Shown: positions 4,700 through 57,744 of the stretch, piece by piece
Layout of the letters: every line of letters starts with the position of its first letter
Position numbering within the stretch: the first letter of the stretch is position 1
From: an uncultured Thermoplasmata archaeon
GTDB taxonomy: Archaea > Thermoplasmatota > Thermoplasmata > Halarchaeoplasmatales > Halarchaeoplasmataceae
Assembly: GCA_964516805.1 (NCBI GenBank)
Contig: CAZEXI010000005.1
Span: 1,556 to 65,555, forward strand
DNA: 64,000 nucleotides
Direction of reading: 5' to 3'
Made by a program: the position numbers and the translations under genes
The notes under the pieces: model-generated
What the model was told of the DNA's origin: nothing
Databases searched by the model: none
What the model saw: only the letters and a program-made list of their open reading frames with translations

Positions 4700-5293
4700 T
4701 TATCTGCTGAAATTGTACTTCCTTCTTAACTTAGTTATTATCTGAGTTCTGGTCCATTTGTCATTTAAAAATTCACTTTCCTCGTCTATCGTTTCGATTA
4801 TCTCTTTAAAATTTTTGTAGTTCTCTAACCGGAGTGCAAATATGTAATCATTATTCATTTCTCTCATCAGATAATAACAATCTGACATGGCTATAGATAT
4901 ATACGAAGGCTTCCTACCAGACTGAGAACCCATGGTAGCTGCATAAGACGTTGAAAGGGTGGTATAATAAAAATCTGGGTCATCAGTATCTTCTTCTTTC
5001 ACTTCACCCATCAATTTGCCTTCCTTTTTAATCAAAGATACGTAAGTAACATTCTCAAAGTCCAAAAGTTGTTTTAAAGATCCAAGTAAAAGCTTGTCAA
5101 CTTCTTTATCTGCAGATGTTGATTTCTCTTCATTTTCTTCCTCCTCTTCTATCTCAACTTCTTCAGATTGCTCAATAGATTCTTCTTCAGCTTCTTCCTG
5201 GTCTCCAAATTTAAATTTGAAAAAATCTGGGTCTTCCTGCTCTTCTGAGATGTGTATTCCTCCTGAAGGGGATATCAAAAAAAGTAGGCACAA
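4700..5293 (-). CDS. Roadblock/LC7-like protein with poly-acidic N-terminal extension
   Basis: 197 aa. The C-terminal ~120 aa align with the Roadblock gene at 55315..55731, including the tail EFLNDKW.R..IITKLRRKY. The N-terminus is an E/D-rich tract. The start is uncertain (TTG; an AGGAGG lies inside the annotated 5' end). Confidence 0.5.
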   Translation of the reverse strand: MCLLFLISPSGGIHISEEQEDPDFFKFKFGDQEEAEEESIEQSEEVEIEEEEENEEKSTSADKEVDKLLLGSLKQLLDFENVTYVSLIKKEGKLMGEVKEEDTDDPDFYYTTLSTSYAATMGSQSGRKPSYISIAMSDCYYLMREMNNDYIFALRLENYKNFKEIIETIDEESEFLNDKWTRTQIITKLRRKYNFSR

Positions 5294-12210: not shown

Positions 12211-13164
12211 ATGAAAGAATTTATGGAGAGGTTGAAGAAAGACTCGTTCCCCATCACTTATGAAGTCCCATCCCCACGGGGAGGGAATGTGGAAGATTAT
12301 ATCGATCATATAACAGAATACGAGTTTAAAGACCATATCGCTGGTTTCAATGTGTGTAATAATCCTGTGGGGCTGGTGAGGATAGACCCCGGTCCATATG
12401 CGGGAAAAATAAAAGAAAAGATAGGAATAGATACCATAGCTCATCTAACATGTAGAGATTCTACTATAGGTGGACTTCAAAGATGGCTTTTAGGAGCTCA
12501 ATCATTGGGCATAAAAAATATATTGGCGATGACTGGTGACTACGCAGTCGGTGATTATCCTGCTGAGGAAAAAGTAGATCATATCAACTCTCTAGAACTT
12601 ATCACTGGTATCAAAGATTATCTAAACCAGGGTAAATTGATGCCTGAGCTGTCAGCACGACCCCATAAAACCAGAAATAGGTACCTCAGCGAAATAGACG
12701 AAATAGAAGTTCCAACCGACTTTATAGTCGGTGGAGTTATACTACCTGGTAGGAAAAAAGAAGCTGGTTACGCTGCCAGGAAGGTTGATGCAGGTGCTGA
12801 TTTTTTCCAAACCCAGATAACATATGACCATGAAGAGATGCTTGACTTTTTAGAAAAATTAGAAGACCGTATAGAAAGATATCCTCCAATACTTATAGGA
12901 ACTACCCCTTTCCAGTCTCCAAAACAGATGATGGAACTCTCAGATACGATACCTCAGGTAAATATTCCTGATTACGTTCAAAAGCGGTTATCTAAGGCAG
13001 ATGACTTCAAATCAGAATCAATCGAATACACGATTGAGTTCTACGAAAAGATAAAAGATGGAGCAGAAGAAAGGGGTATCAATTGCAAATTGGGGGCGCA
13101 TATAATACCCATAAGGTATGAAGGTAGGGTGAATGAGATAATAAGGAGGATAAGTGAGATATGA
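12211..13164 (+). CDS. metF: methylenetetrahydrofolate/-methanopterin reductase-like protein (MetF/MTHFR family)
   Basis: 317 aa with the MTHFR-type TIM-barrel signature including IAHLTCRD and ILAMTGD. The stop overlaps the next start (ATGA). Confidence 0.8.
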   Translation: MKEFMERLKKDSFPITYEVPSPRGGNVEDYIDHITEYEFKDHIAGFNVCNNPVGLVRIDPGPYAGKIKEKIGIDTIAHLTCRDSTIGGLQRWLLGAQSLGIKNILAMTGDYAVGDYPAEEKVDHINSLELITGIKDYLNQGKLMPELSARPHKTRNRYLSEIDEIEVPTDFIVGGVILPGRKKEAGYAARKVDAGADFFQTQITYDHEEMLDFLEKLEDRIERYPPILIGTTPFQSPKQMMELSDTIPQVNIPDYVQKRLSKADDFKSESIEYTIEFYEKIKDGAEERGINCKLGAHIIPIRYEGRVNEIIRRISEI

Positions 13165-13733
13165 GTGATCTTTATCCATGGGGAGGAAAATACAGAACTG
13201 GCAGTGCAGAATCCCCTGTAGCTGTTGTTACTTTAAACACAGATTTTGATTTTCCAGAAGATAAAGTCGCTATTTGGGGAAAGATGAAAACAGAAAACCT
13301 TGGTATAGAAAAAGTGATAGCTAACGTGATCTCAAATCCAAATATCCGATTTCTTATTATCTGTGGTGAAGAGATAAGAGGGCATAACTCAGGTAATTCT
13401 TTGAAAGCGGTAATAAAGAATGGAATCGACGATAATGGTAAAATAATCGAAGCACCAGGTGCCGTTCCATATATAGAGAACATATCAAAAGAAGCTGTTG
13501 AAAGATTTCGGGATCAAATTTCTGTTATAGATAAAATAGATATTACTGAAAAAGAAAAAATATTAGATGTTATAAACTCAAAACTGGAAGAAAATCTAGG
13601 TCGTTTTGATGACCCCTTTATAGCAATAAGAATAAAAAACGAAGAAAAGTCAAAACTAGAAGCTGATCTAGCTCTGCATGCTTCTTTAAAGATCAGTCCG
13701 TGGGGGAAAATTTCTCCAGCTGAAAATGAATAA
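13161..13733 (+). CDS. mtrA: soluble MtrA-like corrinoid-binding protein
   Basis: 190 aa. YPWGGKY..SPVAVVTL and NPNIRFLIICGEEIRGHNSG match the MtrA cobamide-binding domain. There is no hydrophobic C-terminal anchor. Confidence 0.8.
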   Translation: MSDLYPWGGKYRTGSAESPVAVVTLNTDFDFPEDKVAIWGKMKTENLGIEKVIANVISNPNIRFLIICGEEIRGHNSGNSLKAVIKNGIDDNGKIIEAPGAVPYIENISKEAVERFRDQISVIDKIDITEKEKILDVINSKLEENLGRFDDPFIAIRIKNEEKSKLEADLALHASLKISPWGKISPAENE

Positions 13734-13788
13734 ATCCATTAGTATATAAGGAAAACTGTTATATTCTCCTAAGCATAACGTTCCGTAC

Positions 13789-16700
13789 ATGGATTTGATC
13801 CTGATAGACGATAATCCAGATCTTATCGAGCAGGCAAGTATTTACCTCCAGAGGGAAGATGAAAGGTTCAATATACATACCACCACATCACCTATCAACG
13901 CATTCAATAAAATTAAAGATCAAGACTTTGATGTGGTCGTCTCTGATTACCAGATGCCAGAGATGACTGGTTTAGATCTATTAAAAAAAATGAGAGACAA
14001 CGGCTATAATACTCCTTTCATCATATTTACAGGAAGAGGACGAGAGGAAGTTGCTATAAAAGCTCTAAATCTAGGAGCGGATCGGTATATCCAGAAAGGG
14101 TGTGATATTAAGACTCAATACAGTCTTTTAGCCAATAATATTAAACAAGTAGTCGATCTAGAAGAATCTAAACAAAGAATCAAAGAAAAGAAAAATAAAA
14201 TAAAGGCACTTCATAAAATAGGTTTCCAGTTAAACAAAACAGACAACGAAGAAGATATACTTGATTTGACTATAAAGGCTGCAAGCGATATACTAGAATT
14301 CAATGTATGTGATATCGATTTTTTAAAAGACGGGGAATTCATTCCAAAAAGAACTACAAGAGAAGATGGGATACCTGTCGAAAGCTATCCTTTCAAGGGT
14401 ACCTTGGCTAAGACCTACAAAACAAAAGAATCCTTCATTACTAACGATATCACTAATTCTGATACTGCAGATCCAATAGATAAAAATTACAAATCTGGTA
14501 TCAGTGTACCTATAGGTGGCTATGGAGTTTTTCAAGCTATATCATTCCAAAAAGACTACTTTGATGAAGAAGATCTTGAACTATCTGAAATTTTGATTTC
14601 ACACGTAAATCTAGCATTGAATAAAGTTAAATTTGATAAAAAAAGACAAAAAGAAAAAGATAAGATTGAAAAATTACACAAGATCACTTCAAAAATGGAA
14701 AATGTAGATGAGATGAAGGATGTATTCGATTTAGCGATAGAAGCAGTCGAAAATATTCTTGATTTCAATGTGTGCTCATTCAGCTTAGCTGATGATGATG
14801 AATTTGTAATAACCGCTAAAAGTTCAGCAGAGTATCTGCCGATAGGTTACAGATTTCCTATAAATACTGGTATCGCTGGAAAGTGTTATAAAACCGGGTC
14901 TAAAATCGTAACAAAGGATGTTGATAGAGATAATAGAGCACAACCTAATAAGGACTCTTACAAATCAGGTATCACTTTACCTATTTTAAATATCGGTATA
15001 TTTCAGATAATTTTCGATGAAAAAGAAGCTTTTGACGATCACGATGTAAGAGTAGTCGAATTACTGATAAATCATGTGAATGAAGCATTGAAAAGAATAA
15101 GATCTACTAGTTCTTTAAAAGAGTCAGAAGCAACATACAAAACAATTTACGAAAACACATTGAAACTCTCCAAAGAAAAAGATTTTGATAAGGTCATCAA
15201 AACTATCGCTGATAATGCCAAAAAGCTATTGAAAGCAAACGATTCAATAATATATTTATTAAATACCAATAAAAATAGTATAGAACCCATATATTCGAAC
15301 AACCCAGACTATAAAGAAGAAATAATGAACTATGACATTTCTTTAGGGGAAGGATTGACAGGAAATGTAGTAAAGAATGGAGAAGCTAAGATCATTAACT
15401 ACGATGATGAAAAAAACGGAATTTTAGTAATTCCAGGTACAGAAAAGAAGAAAGACCATGAACATGAATCCGTTATATCAACTCCTCTTTTTATAGATGA
15501 CAAGGTCCAAGGAGCTATTACAGTTACAAAATTTAAAGAAAAATTCAGTGAAGAGGACATTATAAAACTAAATACATTCGCTAGACAGGCAGAGATCGCC
15601 ATCAAAAGAGCTGAAGAGCTCGATAATCTTAAAAGATCTAAAAGGAAACTAAAAGAGAATAAGAATAAGATAGAAGAACTACACTACGCAGTAAATAGGA
15701 TAGAAAAAAGTAAAAATGAACAGGAAATTTATCACTTAGCTATCAAAATTGCGGAAAACATATTAGATTTTGATATAGCTGAATTCATGGTAAAAAGTAA
15801 AGATGAATTAGTTGTTAAAGCTAAATCCTATTCAGATCCTACTGAAGATGACAGCATAGGTATTGAAGAGGGCATAGCTGGAAGAACGTACAAACATGGA
15901 TCTTCCTATATAATAGGAGATATCCCGAACTATTTTAAATCAGAACCGACAAATGAAGATTATAAATCTGGCATATCCGTTCCTGTAGGGAAATATGGGG
16001 TCTTTCAAGCTATATCAACAGAGAAAGATAACTTTGATCAAAATGACCTAGATTTAGCTGAGATACTCATTTCTCACGTGACCGAGAAACTGAAAAATAT
16101 ATCTAATGAAAAAAAGATCAAAAGAGAATCAGAAAAAATAGAAAGACTACATAAATTCGCAGCAAACTTAGAAAGCTGCTTAGAAAAAGAAAGGGTCTTT
16201 GAATTGATAACTGAAGCTGGTGAAAATATATTGGATTTAGATATCTGTAAAACGTATATCTCTAAAGACGATGATTTATTAATCAAAAAACACTCATCCA
16301 TGTATACACAATCTTCCAGTTCTCTGGCTAAAAAATTAGCTGATAAAACCTACGATGAAGATAAAATCTTAACAGAAAATGACATTGAAAATATTGAAAG
16401 TACAGAGAATTTCAAATCAATAATAAGTATGCCGATAGCTTCTTATGGTGTGTTCCAAGCTATTTCAAAAGATAAAAAAGCTTTTGATCAGGAAGACACG
16501 AAACTATCTAAACTTTTGATAGACCACGCTGTAGAAGCCCTTAATAGAATACAGAGTGAAAGTAGAGAGGAATTCTTATTGACTCTTTTAAGACATGATC
16601 TTAAAAATAAAAATAACATAACTAGAGGCTATATATCAATAATACAGGATATGGACATTGATGATAAACAGAAAACATTCTTAGAAAAAGCATCAACATC

Positions 16701-17199
16701 ATGCGAAGAAAGTATGTCACTCATTAAAAAAGTGGGTATGCTTAGAAAGATCGATAAGGAAAAAGAAAAAAAGGAGATCAATATCCATCATTCCTTAAAT
16801 CAAGCCTTAGATAATCTATATAAGATCGCTGAAGAAAAAAATATCAAAATAGACTATGAGAAATGTTCAAACAAGGTAAGTGCTGGGCCTCTTTTGAAAG
16901 AAGCTTTCAGTAATATAATAGAAAATTGTTTAGAACATTCTGATGGTTCACATATAAAAATCTACTCTAATGACTATGATAGATCTATCGAGCTGATAAT
17001 TGAAGATGATGGTAAAGGCATATCAGACGATAAACTCAATAAAGTATTTAAGAGAGGTTTTAAAGGAAGAAATTCAGGTGGTCTGGGTATAGGGATGTAC
17101 ATCGTAAAAAGTATAATTGATAACTATGATGGTAATATAAACCTAGGAAAATCTGAACTGGGTGGAGCTAGGTTTGAAATAACATTAAATAAAACATAA
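13789..17199 (+). CDS. hybrid sensor histidine kinase: REC-(GAF)x5-HisKA-HATPase
   Basis: 1136 aa with an N-terminal receiver (SDYQMPEMTGL) and five GAF modules. H-box LLRHDLKNK; DDGKGI and GLGIGM boxes. Confidence 0.9.
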   Translation: MDLILIDDNPDLIEQASIYLQREDERFNIHTTTSPINAFNKIKDQDFDVVVSDYQMPEMTGLDLLKKMRDNGYNTPFIIFTGRGREEVAIKALNLGADRYIQKGCDIKTQYSLLANNIKQVVDLEESKQRIKEKKNKIKALHKIGFQLNKTDNEEDILDLTIKAASDILEFNVCDIDFLKDGEFIPKRTTREDGIPVESYPFKGTLAKTYKTKESFITNDITNSDTADPIDKNYKSGISVPIGGYGVFQAISFQKDYFDEEDLELSEILISHVNLALNKVKFDKKRQKEKDKIEKLHKITSKMENVDEMKDVFDLAIEAVENILDFNVCSFSLADDDEFVITAKSSAEYLPIGYRFPINTGIAGKCYKTGSKIVTKDVDRDNRAQPNKDSYKSGITLPILNIGIFQIIFDEKEAFDDHDVRVVELLINHVNEALKRIRSTSSLKESEATYKTIYENTLKLSKEKDFDKVIKTIADNAKKLLKANDSIIYLLNTNKNSIEPIYSNNPDYKEEIMNYDISLGEGLTGNVVKNGEAKIINYDDEKNGILVIPGTEKKKDHEHESVISTPLFIDDKVQGAITVTKFKEKFSEEDIIKLNTFARQAEIAIKRAEELDNLKRSKRKLKENKNKIEELHYAVNRIEKSKNEQEIYHLAIKIAENILDFDIAEFMVKSKDELVVKAKSYSDPTEDDSIGIEEGIAGRTYKHGSSYIIGDIPNYFKSEPTNEDYKSGISVPVGKYGVFQAISTEKDNFDQNDLDLAEILISHVTEKLKNISNEKKIKRESEKIERLHKFAANLESCLEKERVFELITEAGENILDLDICKTYISKDDDLLIKKHSSMYTQSSSSLAKKLADKTYDEDKILTENDIENIESTENFKSIISMPIASYGVFQAISKDKKAFDQEDTKLSKLLIDHAVEALNRIQSESREEFLLTLLRHDLKNKNNITRGYISIIQDMDIDDKQKTFLEKASTSCEESMSLIKKVGMLRKIDKEKEKKEINIHHSLNQALDNLYKIAEEKNIKIDYEKCSNKVSAGPLLKEAFSNIIENCLEHSDGSHIKIYSNDYDRSIELIIEDDGKGISDDKLNKVFKRGFKGRNSGGLGIGMYIVKSIIDNYDGNINLGKSELGGARFEITLNKT
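14194..16554 (+). repeat. tandem array of five GAF-encoding modules (four of one subtype, one divergent) inside the kinase gene
   Basis: A signature recurs at about aa 136, 291, 626 and 782: K-I-x-x-LH ... ENILDF(N/D)(V/I)C ... YKSGIS(V)P(I/V)G.YGVFQAIS ... L(A/S)E(I/L)LI.HV. Module 3 (about aa 448-607) is a different GAF type. Confidence 0.75.
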
Positions 17200-17272
17200 C
17201 AATCTATTTTGAAATTGATCAATCGAAATAATAATTTACAACATCGTACATTTATAATGGGAGGAATAGAAA

Positions 17273-18187
17273 ATGTTCAGTTATACCAAAGAACAAAAAA
17301 CTTACGAGCTTGGAGATATAAAAGTTGGCGGATTACCTGGACAATTTCCTACACTGATGGTCGGTACTGTTTTTTACAAAGGTCAGTTCAAAAATCAAAA
17401 AAGATCAAAGAGTAAAGTAAGTGCCCTTATCCAAAAACAAAAAGAATTCTCAGAAAAAACATCTATTCCCTCATTGGTGGATTTTTTTATATACGAGAAA
17501 GACGAAGTCGAATGGAAGATCGATTTTGCTATCGAAAATACGGACGGTTACTTTTCATTGGATATACCAGAATCGGAAGTTAGGATAAAGGCATTAGAAT
17601 ATCTAGATGAACAGGACGCCTTATCAAGAGTTGTGTACAATAGTTTTAATCTCGGTGTAACCGATAAAGAACTCGAAGTGCTTAAAGAAAAAACACCCTC
17701 TGCAGCAATAATACTGGCTTATAACCCTCAAAACAACAACACCCAGGGTCGTTTAGATATACTTACCGATGGTGGTAAATTATTAGAAAAGGGACTGCTG
17801 GATATGGCTAAAGAAGTTGGGATAGAAAAAACGCTATTGGACACTGCAGCGACACCTTTCGGCGAGGGTGCATGTGAAACTATAAGAGCTATACCAGTTT
17901 TTAAAAGTGAATTAGGTCTTCCTGTTGGATGTGCACTACACAACACCGTTGAATCATGGCAGTGGTTGGAAGAATATAGTGATAGAAAAAAGATTTTAGA
18001 TTCGATAGACACCGGGATTGATGGTTTACCTGTTCTTCTGGGAGCTGACTTCATTTATTATGGTCCAATTGAAAATTCTCGATATTCGTTCCCATACATA
18101 GCAATGGTCAATAAACTGATAGCTGAAGGAGCTGAAGATTATTTTGGACAGGATATAGATGAAGAACATCCATATTATAAATTATAA
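17273..18187 (+). CDS. mtrH: MtrH-like pterin:corrinoid methyltransferase
   Basis: 304 aa. The N-terminus MFSYTKEQKTYELGDIKVGGLPGQFPTLMVGTVFY closely follows the MtrH consensus. GGAGG lies 8 nt upstream of the ATG. Confidence 0.8.
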   Translation: MFSYTKEQKTYELGDIKVGGLPGQFPTLMVGTVFYKGQFKNQKRSKSKVSALIQKQKEFSEKTSIPSLVDFFIYEKDEVEWKIDFAIENTDGYFSLDIPESEVRIKALEYLDEQDALSRVVYNSFNLGVTDKELEVLKEKTPSAAIILAYNPQNNNTQGRLDILTDGGKLLEKGLLDMAKEVGIEKTLLDTAATPFGEGACETIRAIPVFKSELGLPVGCALHNTVESWQWLEEYSDRKKILDSIDTGIDGLPVLLGADFIYYGPIENSRYSFPYIAMVNKLIAEGAEDYFGQDIDEEHPYYKL

Positions 18188-49031: not shown

Positions 49032-50894
49032 ATGAAGATACCTGCAGGGAAAACTCTCAAATCAAAATTTGGAGGCGAAGGGGAAATAGATACATACATG
49101 GAAGAAGCAAAAAATAATAATTTTATAGGGTTCATATATACTGAGCTAATAAAAAAAGACTCAATATCTAAAGGTTATATTGTTTTTAAGAATAACCAAG
49201 TTAAAGCTGCTTTTCACGAAGGGATAAAAGAGAGTTTTGGTAAAAAATCCATCAGATACATCATCAATGATTCATTGGATGAAGACTGCAGGATAGAACT
49301 CCATTCTTATAATTATGAATCCTCATCTATAACTTTAAAACAGGTTCTTAAAAGTAAAGATGATTGGTTGATAGAAGATGAAGAGGATATTTCTTTAGAA
49401 ATAAAACGTGGAAAAAATTTAGAGGATGAACATACAGTTTTAGATGATCTTGAAGACTCTATCAATAAATTGACTGAAGATGCAAGAACAGGAGAAATTG
49501 ACCTCGAGCTAGAACTGGATGAAATAACTGATATCAAAGAGATGGAAGAACTGATTGAATATCTGAAAGAAAGTGAAGATATCTTCGACGAGGCAGAACA
49601 GGAAATCGAGGAGTTCAAGAAAACTAAAAAGAGAGATGAACTGGAAAAAATAAGTAAAGACCTTGAAAATAAAAAGAGAAACCTGGAGGAGTACGAAGAA
49701 AAACTCAAAAAAAGATCAGATGAGATAAAGAAAAAAGAAGAAAAATTAAATGAAAAAGCTGCTGCTGTTGAAGATAGATTTGAAAGTGTCAAAAATCTAT
49801 GGGCTGAAGTTGAACAAGCTACTAAAAAGATCTCTTCTACCAAGGATGATCTAGAAAAAAGGATCGACGATCTTATTAAAAGAGAAAAACTTGTTTTAGA
49901 AGAAAAGAGTAAAATCGAGCAAAGAAAAGAGGAATTAGAAGACCGTGAGGACAGATTGAATAAATTATCATACAAATTAGAAGATAAAAAATCTGAATTA
50001 GATAAACGTGAGAGCAATATTAAGGAAGAACGTTCTGATGTCGACGATCTAAAAAACCGTTTAGAGGATAAAAAAGAAAGACTATCAGAAAAGGAAAAAG
50101 ATTTGGAACAACTTGAAGATCGTTTAAACAACAGAAGAGAAAATCTAGATAAAAAAAGACATGCCCTGGAAAATAAGGAAATGAAAATAGAGAGTAAAGA
50201 GGACGTTCTAGACGATAAATTAAACAACGTTGAAGAAAAAATATCAGACTTTGAGTCTAAAATCAAGGAGCTAGAAGATATTGAATCTGGAATGAAAGAG
50301 AAAAAAGAAGAACTCTTTAAGATTGAAGAGGAACTATCAGAGAGGGAGGAAAAGCTCGAAAAAATCGAAAAGGAATTGAATGAACGTAAAGAAGAATTGA
50401 AAAAGAAAGAGAAAGAAATCGAAAAAGGAAAAAATGAATTGCAAGAGAGGATAAATGACCTAGATAGACGGGAAAAAGAATTAGATAAAAAACAGGAAAA
50501 ATTAGATTCACGAAGAAAGCAGCTCGAAAATAATGAACAAGAACTTCAAAGGGAAAGACAAAAAATCAAAGACGAGTGGAAAGAAATCGAAGAGGAAAAA
50601 GAATATATTAAACAGCAAAATAAAAAGCTAGCTGGTAAGAAGGGAGCGTTGACAAAAAGAGAAAAGAGATTAGACCAGAATGAAAAAGAACTGAACGAAT
50701 TGAAGAAAGAAATAGATGAGAAAAGTAAAGAAATCAAAGAAAAGGAAGAAAACCTAAAAGAAAAAGAAGAAGAAATAAATAAAAATAAAGATAAATTAAA
50801 AAAGAGAAAAGAAAAGTTGGATGAAAAAGAGTCTGAACTCAAAGAAAAAGAAAAATCTTTAGAAGAATTGAAGAAAGGTCTGGATGAAATCTAA
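49032..50894 (+). CDS. PATAN/DUF4388-like N-terminal domain fused to E/K-rich coiled coil
   Basis: 620 aa. The first ~115 aa are globular (FIGFIYTEL...KGYIVFKNNQVKAAFHEG...GKKSIRYII...RIELHSY). The remainder resembles the 1250-aa neighbour and shares the motif KKLAGKKG(A/S)L.(K/R)(R/K)EK.L. Confidence 0.7.
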   Translation: MKIPAGKTLKSKFGGEGEIDTYMEEAKNNNFIGFIYTELIKKDSISKGYIVFKNNQVKAAFHEGIKESFGKKSIRYIINDSLDEDCRIELHSYNYESSSITLKQVLKSKDDWLIEDEEDISLEIKRGKNLEDEHTVLDDLEDSINKLTEDARTGEIDLELELDEITDIKEMEELIEYLKESEDIFDEAEQEIEEFKKTKKRDELEKISKDLENKKRNLEEYEEKLKKRSDEIKKKEEKLNEKAAAVEDRFESVKNLWAEVEQATKKISSTKDDLEKRIDDLIKREKLVLEEKSKIEQRKEELEDREDRLNKLSYKLEDKKSELDKRESNIKEERSDVDDLKNRLEDKKERLSEKEKDLEQLEDRLNNRRENLDKKRHALENKEMKIESKEDVLDDKLNNVEEKISDFESKIKELEDIESGMKEKKEELFKIEEELSEREEKLEKIEKELNERKEELKKKEKEIEKGKNELQERINDLDRREKELDKKQEKLDSRRKQLENNEQELQRERQKIKDEWKEIEEEKEYIKQQNKKLAGKKGALTKREKRLDQNEKELNELKKEIDEKSKEIKEKEENLKEKEEEINKNKDKLKKRKEKLDEKESELKEKEKSLEELKKGLDEI

Positions 50895-55281: not shown

Positions 55282-55314
55282 AAAAATTAATTAAATATAT
55301 CTCATATACAACAG

Positions 55315-55731
55315 TTGGCGATAATTTTGAGTAGAAAGGACTTAGAGGATTCACTAAAAAGGCTTATCAAGAAGCCAGGGATAAGGTACTGCTCAATCGT
55401 CAAAATGAACGGGAACCTTATCGATTTTGAGGGTGAAATACGCAACATGAGCTTAGATACTTACAGTGCAATGTCAGCGACCATTTATGGTGCTGGTAAG
55501 ACTGCAAATGATCATATAAATACAGATGAACCTCACAACATCGTAATAAATGACGGTGGAGGCAGAACCATAATCGAGGGGGTTGGACGTTCACACATAA
55601 TAGTGGTAAGAGCAGAAGATGATGTTGAATTGAATAAACTTCTATCAGAGATAGAAGAGGAGACTGAATTCCTCTCAGAAAATTGGTTAAGAGGACATGT
55701 TATCTCCTCTCTCAAGGACAAGTATGGATGA
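55315..55731 (+). CDS. Roadblock/LC7 (MglB-like) domain protein
   Basis: 138 aa with GIRYCSIVKMNGNLIDFEG...YSAMSATIYGAG...IIVVRAED, typical of Roadblock. The C-terminal tail is EFLSENWLRGHVISSLKDKY. Confidence 0.65.
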   Translation: MAIILSRKDLEDSLKRLIKKPGIRYCSIVKMNGNLIDFEGEIRNMSLDTYSAMSATIYGAGKTANDHINTDEPHNIVINDGGGRTIIEGVGRSHIIVVRAEDDVELNKLLSEIEEETEFLSENWLRGHVISSLKDKYG

Positions 55732-55825
55732 CTTACCAGTAATATCGAAGTATCTTTTCCAATTTTTATCTTTATATTGATAGAAAACTTAATTTATTAT
55801 GTTCCTGTTAGTTTAATTTAAGCGA

Positions 55826-56209
55826 TTGCAGGAGGAAGACTTAATGAATAAAGATATACTATTAAAACCGTTAAAGAAAATATGTTCTAACTCGCAAGTT
55901 GAAATTTGTTGTATAGTAAAAACAAACGGAGATGTATCAGCCAGTGTAGGTGATGTAGATACTTTAGAATTAGAGACTTTTGGTATAATGTCAGCAACTA
56001 TCTTTGGCGCAGCTTCTACATCTAACGAACAACTGAAGAAAAAAGAACCTGATCGAATATTTATAGAATCACCGGATGGATATACTTCAGTTATAAATCT
56101 ATCTAAAGATCATCTTTTAGTTATCAGAACTAAATCAAACTTTGATATTAGAAAAATTGATAAAAAATTTAGTAAAAATATAGATGAGATAAAAAATAAT
56201 TTGAAGTGA
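55826..56209 (+). CDS. Roadblock/LC7 (MglB-like) domain protein
   Basis: 127 aa with VEICCIVKTNGDVSASVG...FGIMSATIFGAA...LLVIRTKS. It is a paralogue of the preceding gene. Confidence 0.6.
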   Translation: MQEEDLMNKDILLKPLKKICSNSQVEICCIVKTNGDVSASVGDVDTLELETFGIMSATIFGAASTSNEQLKKKEPDRIFIESPDGYTSVINLSKDHLLVIRTKSNFDIRKIDKKFSKNIDEIKNNLK

Positions 56210-57744
56210 TAATAATGAAATATTTACAGCTTCCTGAAGAATTGAATAATTTCTTCGATGGAGTGATGGGAAGATCCTTGATGATCAAAGGTAATGCGGG
56301 GACTGGTAAAACTATAATGAGTTTAAGTGTAATAGAGAAGATAGGGACTCTCGATAATTCGTTTTATCTTTCTACCAGGGTAACTAATGAAGCTTTGTAC
56401 AGCCAGTTCAATTGGTTAGAAGAGAAAGACTGGAGATCAAGTTTGATGGACGCTAGTATGGATTTTCTTAAATCTATATCAAAAGAAAAAAAGGTCTCAT
56501 ATGAATTCAAAGCACGTAAATCAGAGGAATTGGATAAACTGGATAAAGCCAGGGATGTCCTCAAAGAGATGAGAGGGAAGGAAGAAGTTGACAAACAATT
56601 ACCTGAACATATAAGCAGAACCATGCTCGTTTCTTTGGAGAAAGAGAATAAGATAACAGAGCTTGAAGAACTTTATGATAAAGTTGAAGGACGGCTACCC
56701 GAAAATTCATTCGTGGTAATAGATAGTATAGAGGCCATTGTAGAACGATATGATATCGATGCTAAACAACTGATAAAAACATTACAAAAAGACCTGGTTG
56801 AATGGTCAGGAGTCAAATTGATTCTGATCTCAGAGAAAAAGGAATCTATCGAATGGGATTACCTTGTTGATGGAGTCGTCACCTTAAATGAAGAAGAGTT
56901 CAAAGGAAGGCGATTTAGAAATATGTATTTGAACAAATTAAGGGGTGTTCGAATTGAAAGACCTTCCTACTTATTCAGTTTGGAGAATGGAAAATTCCAA
57001 TACTTCCCTCCTATTACATATCATACCAAGAAACCCATGCTACAACCAAATACAATACAGGAAGAAGACATAGAGGATCTACCCTCATCAGATGATGATT
57101 TTTATTCCTCTGGATCACGTAAATTAGATGAGATACTCAATGGTGGATATCCTAAAAATTCCATCGTATTGATAGAAGTTGATGATACTGTTCCTTTCTA
57201 CGGCCAAATGAATATTTTAGGCCTTGTAGGTAGAAACTTTTTGGTCCACGGAAACGGAGTTTTGAATATTTCTTCTGAAGCAAGACGTCCAGATAAAAGA
57301 GATATTTGCTCATGGTTCCGTGAGATGGTGCCAAATATCGGTGAAAAAGCTTGTCAAAATTTCAAGATCAAAGGTACCACAAGTCTAGAGAACCTCTCAG
57401 AAGCGTATAAAGAGGTTAAATATTTTGCTAATGAACCTATTCTTACAGTAACAAATTGGGAAGGTGTAGAGCATTCGGTCGCAAAACGTGAAGGCGAGAT
57501 TCCTAAAATAGCTAATAGATTGTTAGATCTGATGTCTACACACAGCGATTTAAATATTGGAATCGTTAGACCAGGCCTAGAGATCACACAAAAATTAAGG
57601 AATATTGCAGAAGTACATCTTAAATTGGTGACCAAACACAATACATTACTTATGTATGGTGAAAAACCGAACACTGTGATATACAACGTAAACATAAAAG
57701 AAGGAGAAAGGGGAGCTGAAGTGGTATTTGATCCTTTGGTCTGA
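56206..57744 (+). CDS. two-domain KaiC/RecA-superfamily ATPase (second domain lacks P-loop)
   Basis: 512 aa. Domain 1 has Walker A GNAGTGKT, Walker B SFVVIDSIE and the KaiC-like LNKLRGVRIERPSYLFSLENGKF. Domain 2 has LDEILNGGYPKNSIVLIEVDDTVPFYG where a P-loop is expected. The likely ATG is at 56215, 6 nt after the upstream stop. Confidence 0.75.
   Translation: MIIMKYLQLPEELNNFFDGVMGRSLMIKGNAGTGKTIMSLSVIEKIGTLDNSFYLSTRVTNEALYSQFNWLEEKDWRSSLMDASMDFLKSISKEKKVSYEFKARKSEELDKLDKARDVLKEMRGKEEVDKQLPEHISRTMLVSLEKENKITELEELYDKVEGRLPENSFVVIDSIEAIVERYDIDAKQLIKTLQKDLVEWSGVKLILISEKKESIEWDYLVDGVVTLNEEEFKGRRFRNMYLNKLRGVRIERPSYLFSLENGKFQYFPPITYHTKKPMLQPNTIQEEDIEDLPSSDDDFYSSGSRKLDEILNGGYPKNSIVLIEVDDTVPFYGQMNILGLVGRNFLVHGNGVLNISSEARRPDKRDICSWFREMVPNIGEKACQNFKIKGTTSLENLSEAYKEVKYFANEPILTVTNWEGVEHSVAKREGEIPKIANRLLDLMSTHSDLNIGIVRPGLEITQKLRNIAEVHLKLVTKHNTLLMYGEKPNTVIYNVNIKEGERGAEVVFDPLV

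Follow-up and report, generated by a model that had tools for sequence, protein, structure and literature searches.

A 64-kb stretch of DNA from an uncultured Thermoplasmata archaeon, referred to here as the window, carries two genes for Roadblock/LC7 proteins followed directly by a gene for a two-domain ATPase of the KaiC fold (positions 55315 to 57744, plus strand). We find that this linkage of a Roadblock gene to an ATPase homologous to GvpD is specific and ancient within Thermoplasmatota, and the two kinds of protein may well work together. The three open reading frames (ORFs) all lie on the plus strand in the order Rb1, Rb2, ATPase, and the adjacency of two Roadblock genes and an ATPase that an initial annotation of this DNA had described is confirmed, coordinates included. 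Rb1, the distal Roadblock/LC7 paralog (55315..55731, 138 amino acids), begins at a TTG codon and has a C-terminal extension of about 15 residues. Rb2, the proximal paralog (55844..56209, 121 amino acids), begins at an ATG preceded by GGAGG at 55831-55835. The initial annotation had taken Rb2 as 55826-56209; the ORF is real, but its likely start is the ATG at 55844, 8 nucleotides (nt) after the GGAGG, and not the mechanically assigned TTG at 55826. The ATPase gene (56215..57744, 509 amino acids) starts with an ATG at 56215, which lies 5 nt past the last base of the Rb2 stop codon and had been located correctly (given as 6 nt after the upstream stop). An alternative GTG start at 56206 overlaps the Rb2 stop as GTGA.

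A TATA-like element, TTAAATATAT (55291..55300, plus strand), can be read in the sequence about 20 nt 5' of the Rb1 start and is a possible promoter, which would give a near-leaderless transcript. A second element of this kind, TTTATATT (55771..55778, plus strand), is located in the 112 nt that separate Rb1 from Rb2 and represents a possible internal promoter driving Rb2 and the ATPase. As the 73-nt spacer between the ATPase gene and a urocanase gene contains a TATA-like element of its own, the end of the cassette is placed at 57744. An Rfam search of the operon and its surroundings, spacers included, gave no match at expectation values (E) up to 0.1, so that neither a riboswitch nor another structured RNA is detected there at that threshold. 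An anti-phage defense system is likewise ruled out, with PADLOC scores at chance level only.

Against the Pfam family Robl_LC7 (PF03259, cutoff 23), Rb1 scores 34.9 bits and Rb2 22.8 bits, marginally under the cutoff. A profile of the subfamily to which both belong matches solved Roadblock proteins with E values of 2e-13 and 9e-12. The AlphaFold model of Rb2, with a mean predicted local distance difference test score (pLDDT) of 94.9, has an alpha-beta-beta-alpha-beta-beta-beta-alpha topology (H-E-E-H-E-E-E-H), and Foldseek superposes it on the Asgard Roadblock homodimer 9jue with a template modeling (TM) score of 0.91 and on MglB with TM scores of 0.87 to 0.90, at a sequence identity of only 12 to 14%. 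On the strength of the subfamily profile matches and the superposition of the model, Rb2 is assigned as a Roadblock protein despite its borderline Pfam score. The closest solved relatives of the model are all dimeric platforms, including MglB bound to the nucleoside triphosphatase (NTPase) MglA. In public gene calls, Rb2 has 121 amino acids and Rb1 is given as 108 amino acids from an internal Met31 (L072, 4680-5006), a start that would strip helix alpha-1 and strand beta-1 from the protein; the TTG start of the initial annotation fits the fold better. Neither Roadblock gene carries a Pfam annotation in these calls. Because the Rb1 call is shortened and Pfam labels are missing from both genes, the module is hidden in standard annotation.

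Judged by its sequence, the ATPase is a full-length homolog of GvpD and not a canonical KaiC. Its best Pfam match is GvpD_P-loop (PF07088), at 76.3 bits against a cutoff of 24 and covering profile positions 1 to 188 of 189, followed by KaiC at 58.9 bits and GvpD_bR2 (PF20440, residues 400-507) at 19.1 bits. The last of these is under its cutoff of 27.9, and true GvpD scores 456 bits; PF20440 is on record for many relatives of the ATPase. The segment RPGLEITQKLRNIAEVHLKL, the counterpart of the GvpD RRR motif, is without the arginine triplet. In a tblastn search of 72,556 plasmids, all matches to the ATPase are gvpD genes, annotated as such, from Halobacterium and its haloarchaeal relatives, in alignments spanning residues 5-509 at 23 to 27% identity (E = 2e-25, and 2.7e-30 in the reciprocal search). 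Curated KaiC equivalog models fail to recognize the protein (NCBIfam NF006799, 37.5 bits versus a cutoff of 408; TIGR02655, 20 versus 546 bits). At the level of fold, the AlphaFold model of the ATPase (pLDDT 78.4) has two RecA-like domains, and the top 50 Foldseek hits obtained with it are all full-length KaiC (about 530 aligned columns, probability 1.0). The KaiC/RecA-type designation first given to the protein therefore holds for the fold, but the end-to-end match and the best Pfam score make it specifically a GvpD homolog. The ATPase family comprises at least 359 cluster representatives, of about 500 to 525 amino acids.

The Walker motifs seen initially in domain 1 are both present and conserved family-wide. 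In Walker A, GNAGTGKT (residues 26-33, 56290..56313, plus strand), G26, G29, G31, and K32 do not vary among 23 family members, and in the Walker B strand, FVVIDSIE (residues 166-173, 56710..56733, plus strand), D170 and S171 are invariant. This strand is placed by hhalign against the Walker B of the KaiC CI domain, VSIDSV. At the position of the catalytic pair Glu77-Glu78 of KaiC-CI stands an S-T-R-V motif (residues 53-56, 56371..56382, plus strand). Pairwise alignment, with the KaiC reference sequence checked against 1u9i, sets R55-V56 opposite E77-E78, and none of the 23 aligned members deviates at T54, R55, or V56. GvpD itself has STRV at the same position, so that the GvpD-like family, bona fide GvpD included, shows an invariant S-T-R-V where KaiC and RecA have catalytic glutamates. 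We find no discussion of this replacement in the accessible GvpD literature.

Domain 1 further contains a charged insertion (residues 81-126, 56455..56592, plus strand) that is predicted to be mostly disordered, with one helix (pLDDT below 50 over residues 81-107 and 116-126). Initially put at about 70 residues, the insertion actually measures about 45 relative to KaiC or GvpD; it is present throughout the family in variable form and is followed by a conserved P..V(D/S)R..L motif. An arginine-rich arm, GRRFRNMYLNKLRG (residues 231-244, 56905..56946, plus strand), in which R235, K241, L242, and R243 are invariant, aligns with ERRRRTLEILKLRG of KaiC and RGRTRRQLRLEKLRG of GvpD.

Domain 2 (residues 293-509, 57091..57741, plus strand; pLDDT mostly 85 to 94) is classified as a P-loop-less pseudo-KaiC domain because hhalign sets the KaiC-CII P-loop, GATGTGKT, opposite VDDTVPFYG, which bears out the earlier remark that this domain has no P-loop. 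The degenerate site is IVLIEVDDTVPFYG (57163-57204, plus strand), and the alignment, which has a probability of 97% and runs across the junction of domains 1 and 2, pairs ILATGATGTGKT of KaiC-CII with VLIEVDDTVPFYG of domain 2. Walker B, the Arg-rich KLRG arm, and the S-G..LD..GGG lead-in to domain 2 are aligned with KaiC as well. The single P-loop of the ATPase is found at residue 29 of the 512-amino-acid ORF. As the CII equivalent is without a P-loop and domain 1 is without the catalytic Glu pair, KaiC-type autophosphorylation by this ATPase appears unlikely.

The linkage of the two kinds of gene was assessed in 67 fetched ATPase loci, which were examined by gene calls or six-frame hidden Markov model (HMM) scans. 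A Roadblock gene lies directly upstream of the ATPase in 10 of the 14 close-subfamily loci having upstream sequence (L001 to L005, L008/9, L010, L011/12, L016, and L018). Approached from the Roadblock side, three of three subfamily members, picked because their contigs were absent from the ATPase list, lie directly upstream of a GvpD-like ATPase, and at least 23 further Roadblock matches share a contig with an ATPase match. Complete genomes with the cassette include CP070739.1, in which the Roadblock gene is single, and CP070672.1. The Roadblock subfamily itself has at least 159 matches, all of them stand-alone proteins of about 120 to 130 amino acids. Because the same gene order is repeated in more than 13 independent loci, the arrangement is not due to chance. 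Nor is it residual synteny, since the flanking genes are wholly different among L008, L010, L011, L068, L069, and L070, with examples including an ABC transporter and PKD-repeat proteins, isoprenoid genes, YjeF and urocanase, exosome subunits, and PCMT. More distant Roadblock relatives (E of about 1e-20 and about 1e-16) are not found beside a GvpD-like ATPase. Conservation in other archaeal genomes, the check named by the initial annotation, is thus positive: the Roadblock-to-ATPase order is conserved across Thermoplasmatota, and the linkage is specific and ancient within this group.

The distance from the Roadblock stop to the ATPase start ranges from -11 to +5 nt in seven of seven annotated cases, a spacing that, as read from the gene coordinates, is of the translational coupling type. 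The pair stays together at 30 to 35% protein identity across orders of Thermoplasmatota. In addition, the assembly GCA_041890195.1 holds two paralogous cassettes (L008, 4627-6566, and L069, 4001-5883), which have diverged as units, with 34% identity between the Roadblock proteins and 44% between the ATPases. This co-divergence hints at partner specificity.

Two Roadblock genes are found only in the window and in its nearest relatives, L001 and L002, whose ATPases are 85 to 90% identical to that of the window; all other loci have a single copy. Rb1 and Rb2 share 28% identity, and the single-copy ortholog at L011, a locus with the same YjeF and urocanase flanks as the window, is 41% identical to Rb1 and 46% identical to Rb2. 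These identities, together with the common flanks, indicate a recent, lineage-specific duplication of what would have been an ancestral single copy. For the Roadblock heterodimer envisaged initially, this means that two diverged paralogs are indeed present here but that most family members have one gene, and the ancestral Roadblock was therefore presumably a homodimer. By analogy with MP1-p14, an Rb1-Rb2 heterodimer is plausible.

Rb1, which is 90% identical to its L001 ortholog, and the ATPase evolve at an equally slow rate. In comparisons with L001 and L002, nonsynonymous divergence (dN) is about 0.04 to 0.06 for Rb1 and about 0.06 to 0.08 for the ATPase, and the ratio of nonsynonymous to synonymous divergence (dN/dS) is about 0.03 for both. 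The corresponding values for Rb2 are a dN of 0.21 to 0.29, four to five times that of its neighbors, and a dN/dS of 0.06 to 0.22; all of these ratios are rough, as dS is near saturation. Purifying selection is still evident on both Roadblock genes. The G+C content of Rb2 is unusually low, at 27.9%, versus 39.8% for Rb1 and 36.5% for the ATPase. The possibility that Rb2 is a decaying pseudogene, raised by its low G+C content and fast evolution, is ruled out by an ORF that is intact in three genomes and by its dN/dS.

Looking beyond the close subfamily, GvpD-like clades at 21 to 30% identity have no Roadblock neighbor and instead have other small genes next to the ATPase. HTH_20-type winged-helix genes lie downstream of it at L022 (4647-4991) and L023 (3840-4184), and IclR/FaeA-like helix-turn-helix (HTH) genes lie upstream at L039 (723-1199) and L041 (2553-2978). 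A single-domain KaiC is the neighbor at L020 (4445-5134), and a possible NitrOD5-like protein, from a weak match, at L050 (4359-4655). In true gvpD, 4 nt separate the gene from gvpE, which encodes a PadR-like winged-helix activator. As winged-helix proteins, a single-domain KaiC, or true GvpE occupy this place in distant clades, there appears to be a conserved slot for a partner gene. The gene neighborhoods suggest that in the GvpD-like family a conserved ATPase serves as the chassis and its small partner can be exchanged, in which case Roadblock would be the Thermoplasmatota version of that partner.

No small GTPase is detected near the cassette. Among window ORFs of at least 90 amino acids, none combines the G1 (P-loop), G3 (DxxG), and G4 ([NT]KxD) motifs, and Pfam scans of 47 window ORFs detect no GTPase family, the P-loop proteins being ABC, AAA+, Cdc48-type, and other non-GTPase proteins. 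The 47 ORFs represent about three quarters of the real genes of the window and include every ORF below 400 amino acids, while large ORFs outside the Pfam scan were covered by the motif scan alone. Both scans agree with the initial annotation, which had seen no GTPase gene in the window. At the six cassette loci with gene calls, there is no GTPase within 4 to 5 kb.

Several other features of the window were recorded. A third, divergent Roadblock-like ORF of 197 amino acids lies at 4700-5293 on the minus strand; its residues 67-183 align with the Roadblock profile of the cassette (hhalign probability 85%, E = 6e-6; HMM E = 3.9e-8), and it has neither the SAT..GA signature nor a Pfam match. It is flanked by genes for a DUF599 protein and an ABC-2 transporter, and neither a GvpD-type ATPase nor a GTPase is found beside it. 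In the 6,246-amino-acid protein P0292, which comes from the exhaustive search for Roadblock representatives and not from the window, 16 separate stretches match positions 49-96 of the Roadblock profile (E = 3e-20), and it may be a repeat protein of half-Roadblock units or a compositional artifact. Apart from Roadblock-like sequences, genes for MTHFR and for MtrA-like and MtrH-like methyltransferase subunits flank a 1,136-amino-acid ORF (13789-17199) within 12211-18187 on the plus strand, a cluster that points to methyl-group (one-carbon) metabolism in this Thermoplasmata archaeon. A 620-amino-acid protein encoded at 49032-50894 (plus strand) has a short N-terminal globular region followed by an extremely charged coiled coil of about 450 residues rich in Lys and Glu, and Pfam gives it nothing beyond compositional matches such as RNase_Y_N.

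Since the ATPase is a GvpD homolog, the closest experimental precedent is the action of GvpD on its neighbor GvpE and not the KaiC clock. GvpD oligomerizes, binds GvpE, and lowers the amount of GvpE, and both its Walker motif and its Arg-rich region are required (PMC4390858). Besides their end-to-end homology, the two ATPases have in common the order of a KaiC-like domain with a P-loop and then a degenerate domain, the motifs STRV, DGV, Arg-rich KLRG, and STG..LD..GG, and a small partner gene at a distance of a few nucleotides; the functionally required Walker A and B motifs and Arg-rich region of GvpD are conserved in the window ATPase, the latter as the arm described above. There are also clear differences. 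The cassette has no gvp cluster and no gvpE, and its partner has the Roadblock fold and is encoded upstream, whereas GvpE is a PadR-like winged-helix protein encoded downstream. The window ATPase also departs from GvpD in that its bR2 region scores below the Pfam cutoff, it does not conserve 494-RRR-496, and its domain 1 insertion is longer; its host, moreover, is a low-GC Thermoplasmata archaeon and not a haloarchaeon. A tblastn search with the 13 Gvp proteins of L071 against the window and 10 cassette loci finds the GvpD homolog only, apart from one HTH gene of L070 that gives a weak GvpE-like match (E = 0.001). A gas-vesicle function is thereby ruled out, there being no gvp gene besides the GvpD homolog in the window or in the ten related loci.

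A parallel can also be drawn with KaiB and KaiC. In kaiBC, kaiB is immediately upstream of kaiC and is cotranscribed with it. The window cassette resembles this pair in the two-domain RecA/KaiC fold of the ATPase and in the small alpha/beta partner gene directly upstream. Unlike KaiC, the window ATPase has one active P-loop only, an Arg-Val in place of the catalytic Glu pair, and no active CII domain, so that the context for a KaiC-type Ser/Thr autophosphorylation site is missing, and its partner has the Roadblock fold, whereas KaiB is thioredoxin-like. Archaeal KaiC-like ATPases were reportedly proposed as signaling hubs by Makarova, Galperin, and Koonin in mBio in 2017. The cassette is in line with that proposal, in which ATPases of the KaiC family go with adaptor or output proteins of various kinds. 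A 2016 paper from the same group sets out this reasoning: second components of KaiC-like ATPases are expected, and should be predictable from gene neighborhoods (PMC4858521).

The Roadblock half of the cassette leads to a different set of systems. By textbook knowledge, Roadblock/MglB proteins are partners of small GTPases, and the eukaryotic ones form platforms for Rag and Rab regulators and for dynein. In many archaea, Roadblock proteins occur with no GTPase gene accompanying theirs. The cassette resembles MglB-MglA and Ragulator/LC7 in the Roadblock fold (TM scores of 0.87 to 0.91) and resembles MglB-MglA in having the genes of a small dimeric platform and an NTPase side by side; Roadblock platforms, moreover, exist in both homodimeric and heterodimeric versions, MP1-p14 being an example. 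It is unlike MglB-MglA in that the adjacent NTPase is a 509-amino-acid ATPase of the RecA/KaiC class and not a Ras-like GTPase of about 200 amino acids, and in that no cognate Ras-like GTPase gene is detected, either in the window or at the six related cassette loci with gene calls. According to PMC10933270, which cites Koonin and Aravind (2000), Roadblock proteins were implicated in 'NTPase regulation', a prediction that the cassette fits.

We propose, with a probability of roughly 55%, that the GvpD-like ATPase and the Roadblock dimer are cognate partners and together form a nucleotide-dependent switch. The cassette would then be a cotranslated, self-contained Thermoplasmatota module made of Roadblock, encoded by one gene and here by two, and a GvpD-type ATPase, which would consist of an ATP-binding KaiC-like N-terminal domain without the usual catalytic glutamates and a C-terminal domain without a P-loop. 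Probably oligomeric, like GvpD and KaiC, the ATPase would bind the Roadblock dimer encoded beside it, for which GvpD-GvpE and KaiC-KaiB are the precedents. In analogy to MglB and MglA, the dimer would tune the ATP/ADP state or read it; alternatively, it would couple that state to downstream targets. We infer the direct binding in this scheme, along with the oligomeric state, the direction of regulation, and the output, by such analogies. The conserved linkage, the coupling-type spacing, and the lack of a nearby GTPase together support a Roadblock that works with the ATPase and not with a GTPase, and to that extent the initial suggestion that the Roadblock proteins regulate or read out the ATPase receives partial support, in favor of a joint function.

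Other observations weigh against such a partnership. No Roadblock gene is present at 4 of the 14 close-subfamily ATPase loci (L013, L014, L017, and L019), and the ATPase can therefore work without an adjacent Roadblock. No Roadblock-ATPase fusion is seen among the top 120 Roadblock-subfamily matches or, in an exhaustive search, among the best 150 of 1,885 Roadblock representatives. All characterized prokaryotic Roadblock/MglB proteins act on GTPases. Finally, the correlation of pairwise identities between the partners (mirror-tree, r = 0.91) is set aside as nonspecific, since shared phylogeny alone predicts it.

A narrower version of the proposed switch assigns the Roadblock/MglB fold the role of a dedicated ATPase regulator, akin to a GTPase-activating protein, an exchange factor, or KaiB, with ATP turnover or its read-out depending on the Roadblock dimer. 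We offer it tentatively, as the odds are somewhat against it. The missing canonical glutamates make partner-dependent control of ATP turnover attractive, albeit as speculation.

As GvpD lowers the level of its own neighbor, the Roadblock protein could instead be a target of the ATPase, its level or activity lowered in an ATP-dependent manner, and have a separate effector role of its own. The window ATPase is homologous to GvpD from end to end and keeps the Walker and Arg-rich motifs needed for GvpE breakdown, and the small neighbor of GvpD and of other clades is a winged-helix regulator, the presumed target or output. The order of the genes is reversed here, with Roadblock upstream of the ATPase and gvpE downstream of gvpD; yet gene order is weak evidence either way, as the winged-helix genes are upstream at L039 and L041 and downstream at L022 and L023. 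Also against this GvpE-like relationship, Roadblock proteins have no known autonomous output, and tight translational coupling suits a stoichiometric complex better than the relation of a protease-like enzyme to its substrate. We regard it as unlikely.

The Roadblock proteins might also act on a Ras-like GTPase encoded elsewhere, the ATPase being a coexpressed member of the same pathway and not a direct partner. In every solved complex of a prokaryotic Roadblock protein, MglA-MglB among them, the partner is a GTPase, and Asgard archaea, according to PMC10933270, do not usually carry their Roadblock genes and GTPase genes in operons. The absence of a GTPase from the neighborhood does not, therefore, exclude a GTPase partner. 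Still, none is detected in the window or around the six cassette loci, the Roadblock subfamily occurs almost exclusively beside the ATPase and its distant relatives lose the linkage, and spacing of the coupling type argues for a joint complex; an unlinked GTPase as the real partner thus seems improbable to us. That the genes are functionally unrelated and merely share a transcript, as the four related ATPase loci without a Roadblock gene might suggest, is very hard to reconcile with a pair that is kept at 30 to 35% identity across orders while all flanks change, that duplicates as a unit, and whose genes overlap by 1 to 11 nt in several genomes.

A full-text literature search found no paper linking Roadblock/LC7 to KaiC or GvpD ATPases; it did not cover the tables of the 2017 KaiC-hub study, which could mention the pairing. 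The pairing is apparently new, yet it fits existing frameworks in which a GvpD/KaiC-type ATPase goes with a small partner gene. To our knowledge, almost no archaeal ATPase of the KaiC/GvpD family has a defined partner, abundant as these proteins are. The Arg-Val that replaces the Glu pair family-wide provides a source of hypotheses on how GvpD-type ATPases become activated. If Roadblock does regulate the ATPase, the switch would be the first in a prokaryote to pair Roadblock with an ATPase. Under the old 'NTPase regulator' hypothesis it would connect MglB-GTPase systems to LC7-dynein, dynein being an AAA+ ATPase, and it would also supply the archaeal KaiC-hub proposal with a concrete, tractable example made of two proteins. 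Consisting of two or three proteins that are small and soluble, the module lends itself to direct testing and could show whether a Roadblock platform controls an ATPase, and it would extend the sole characterized GvpD mechanism beyond gas vesicles.

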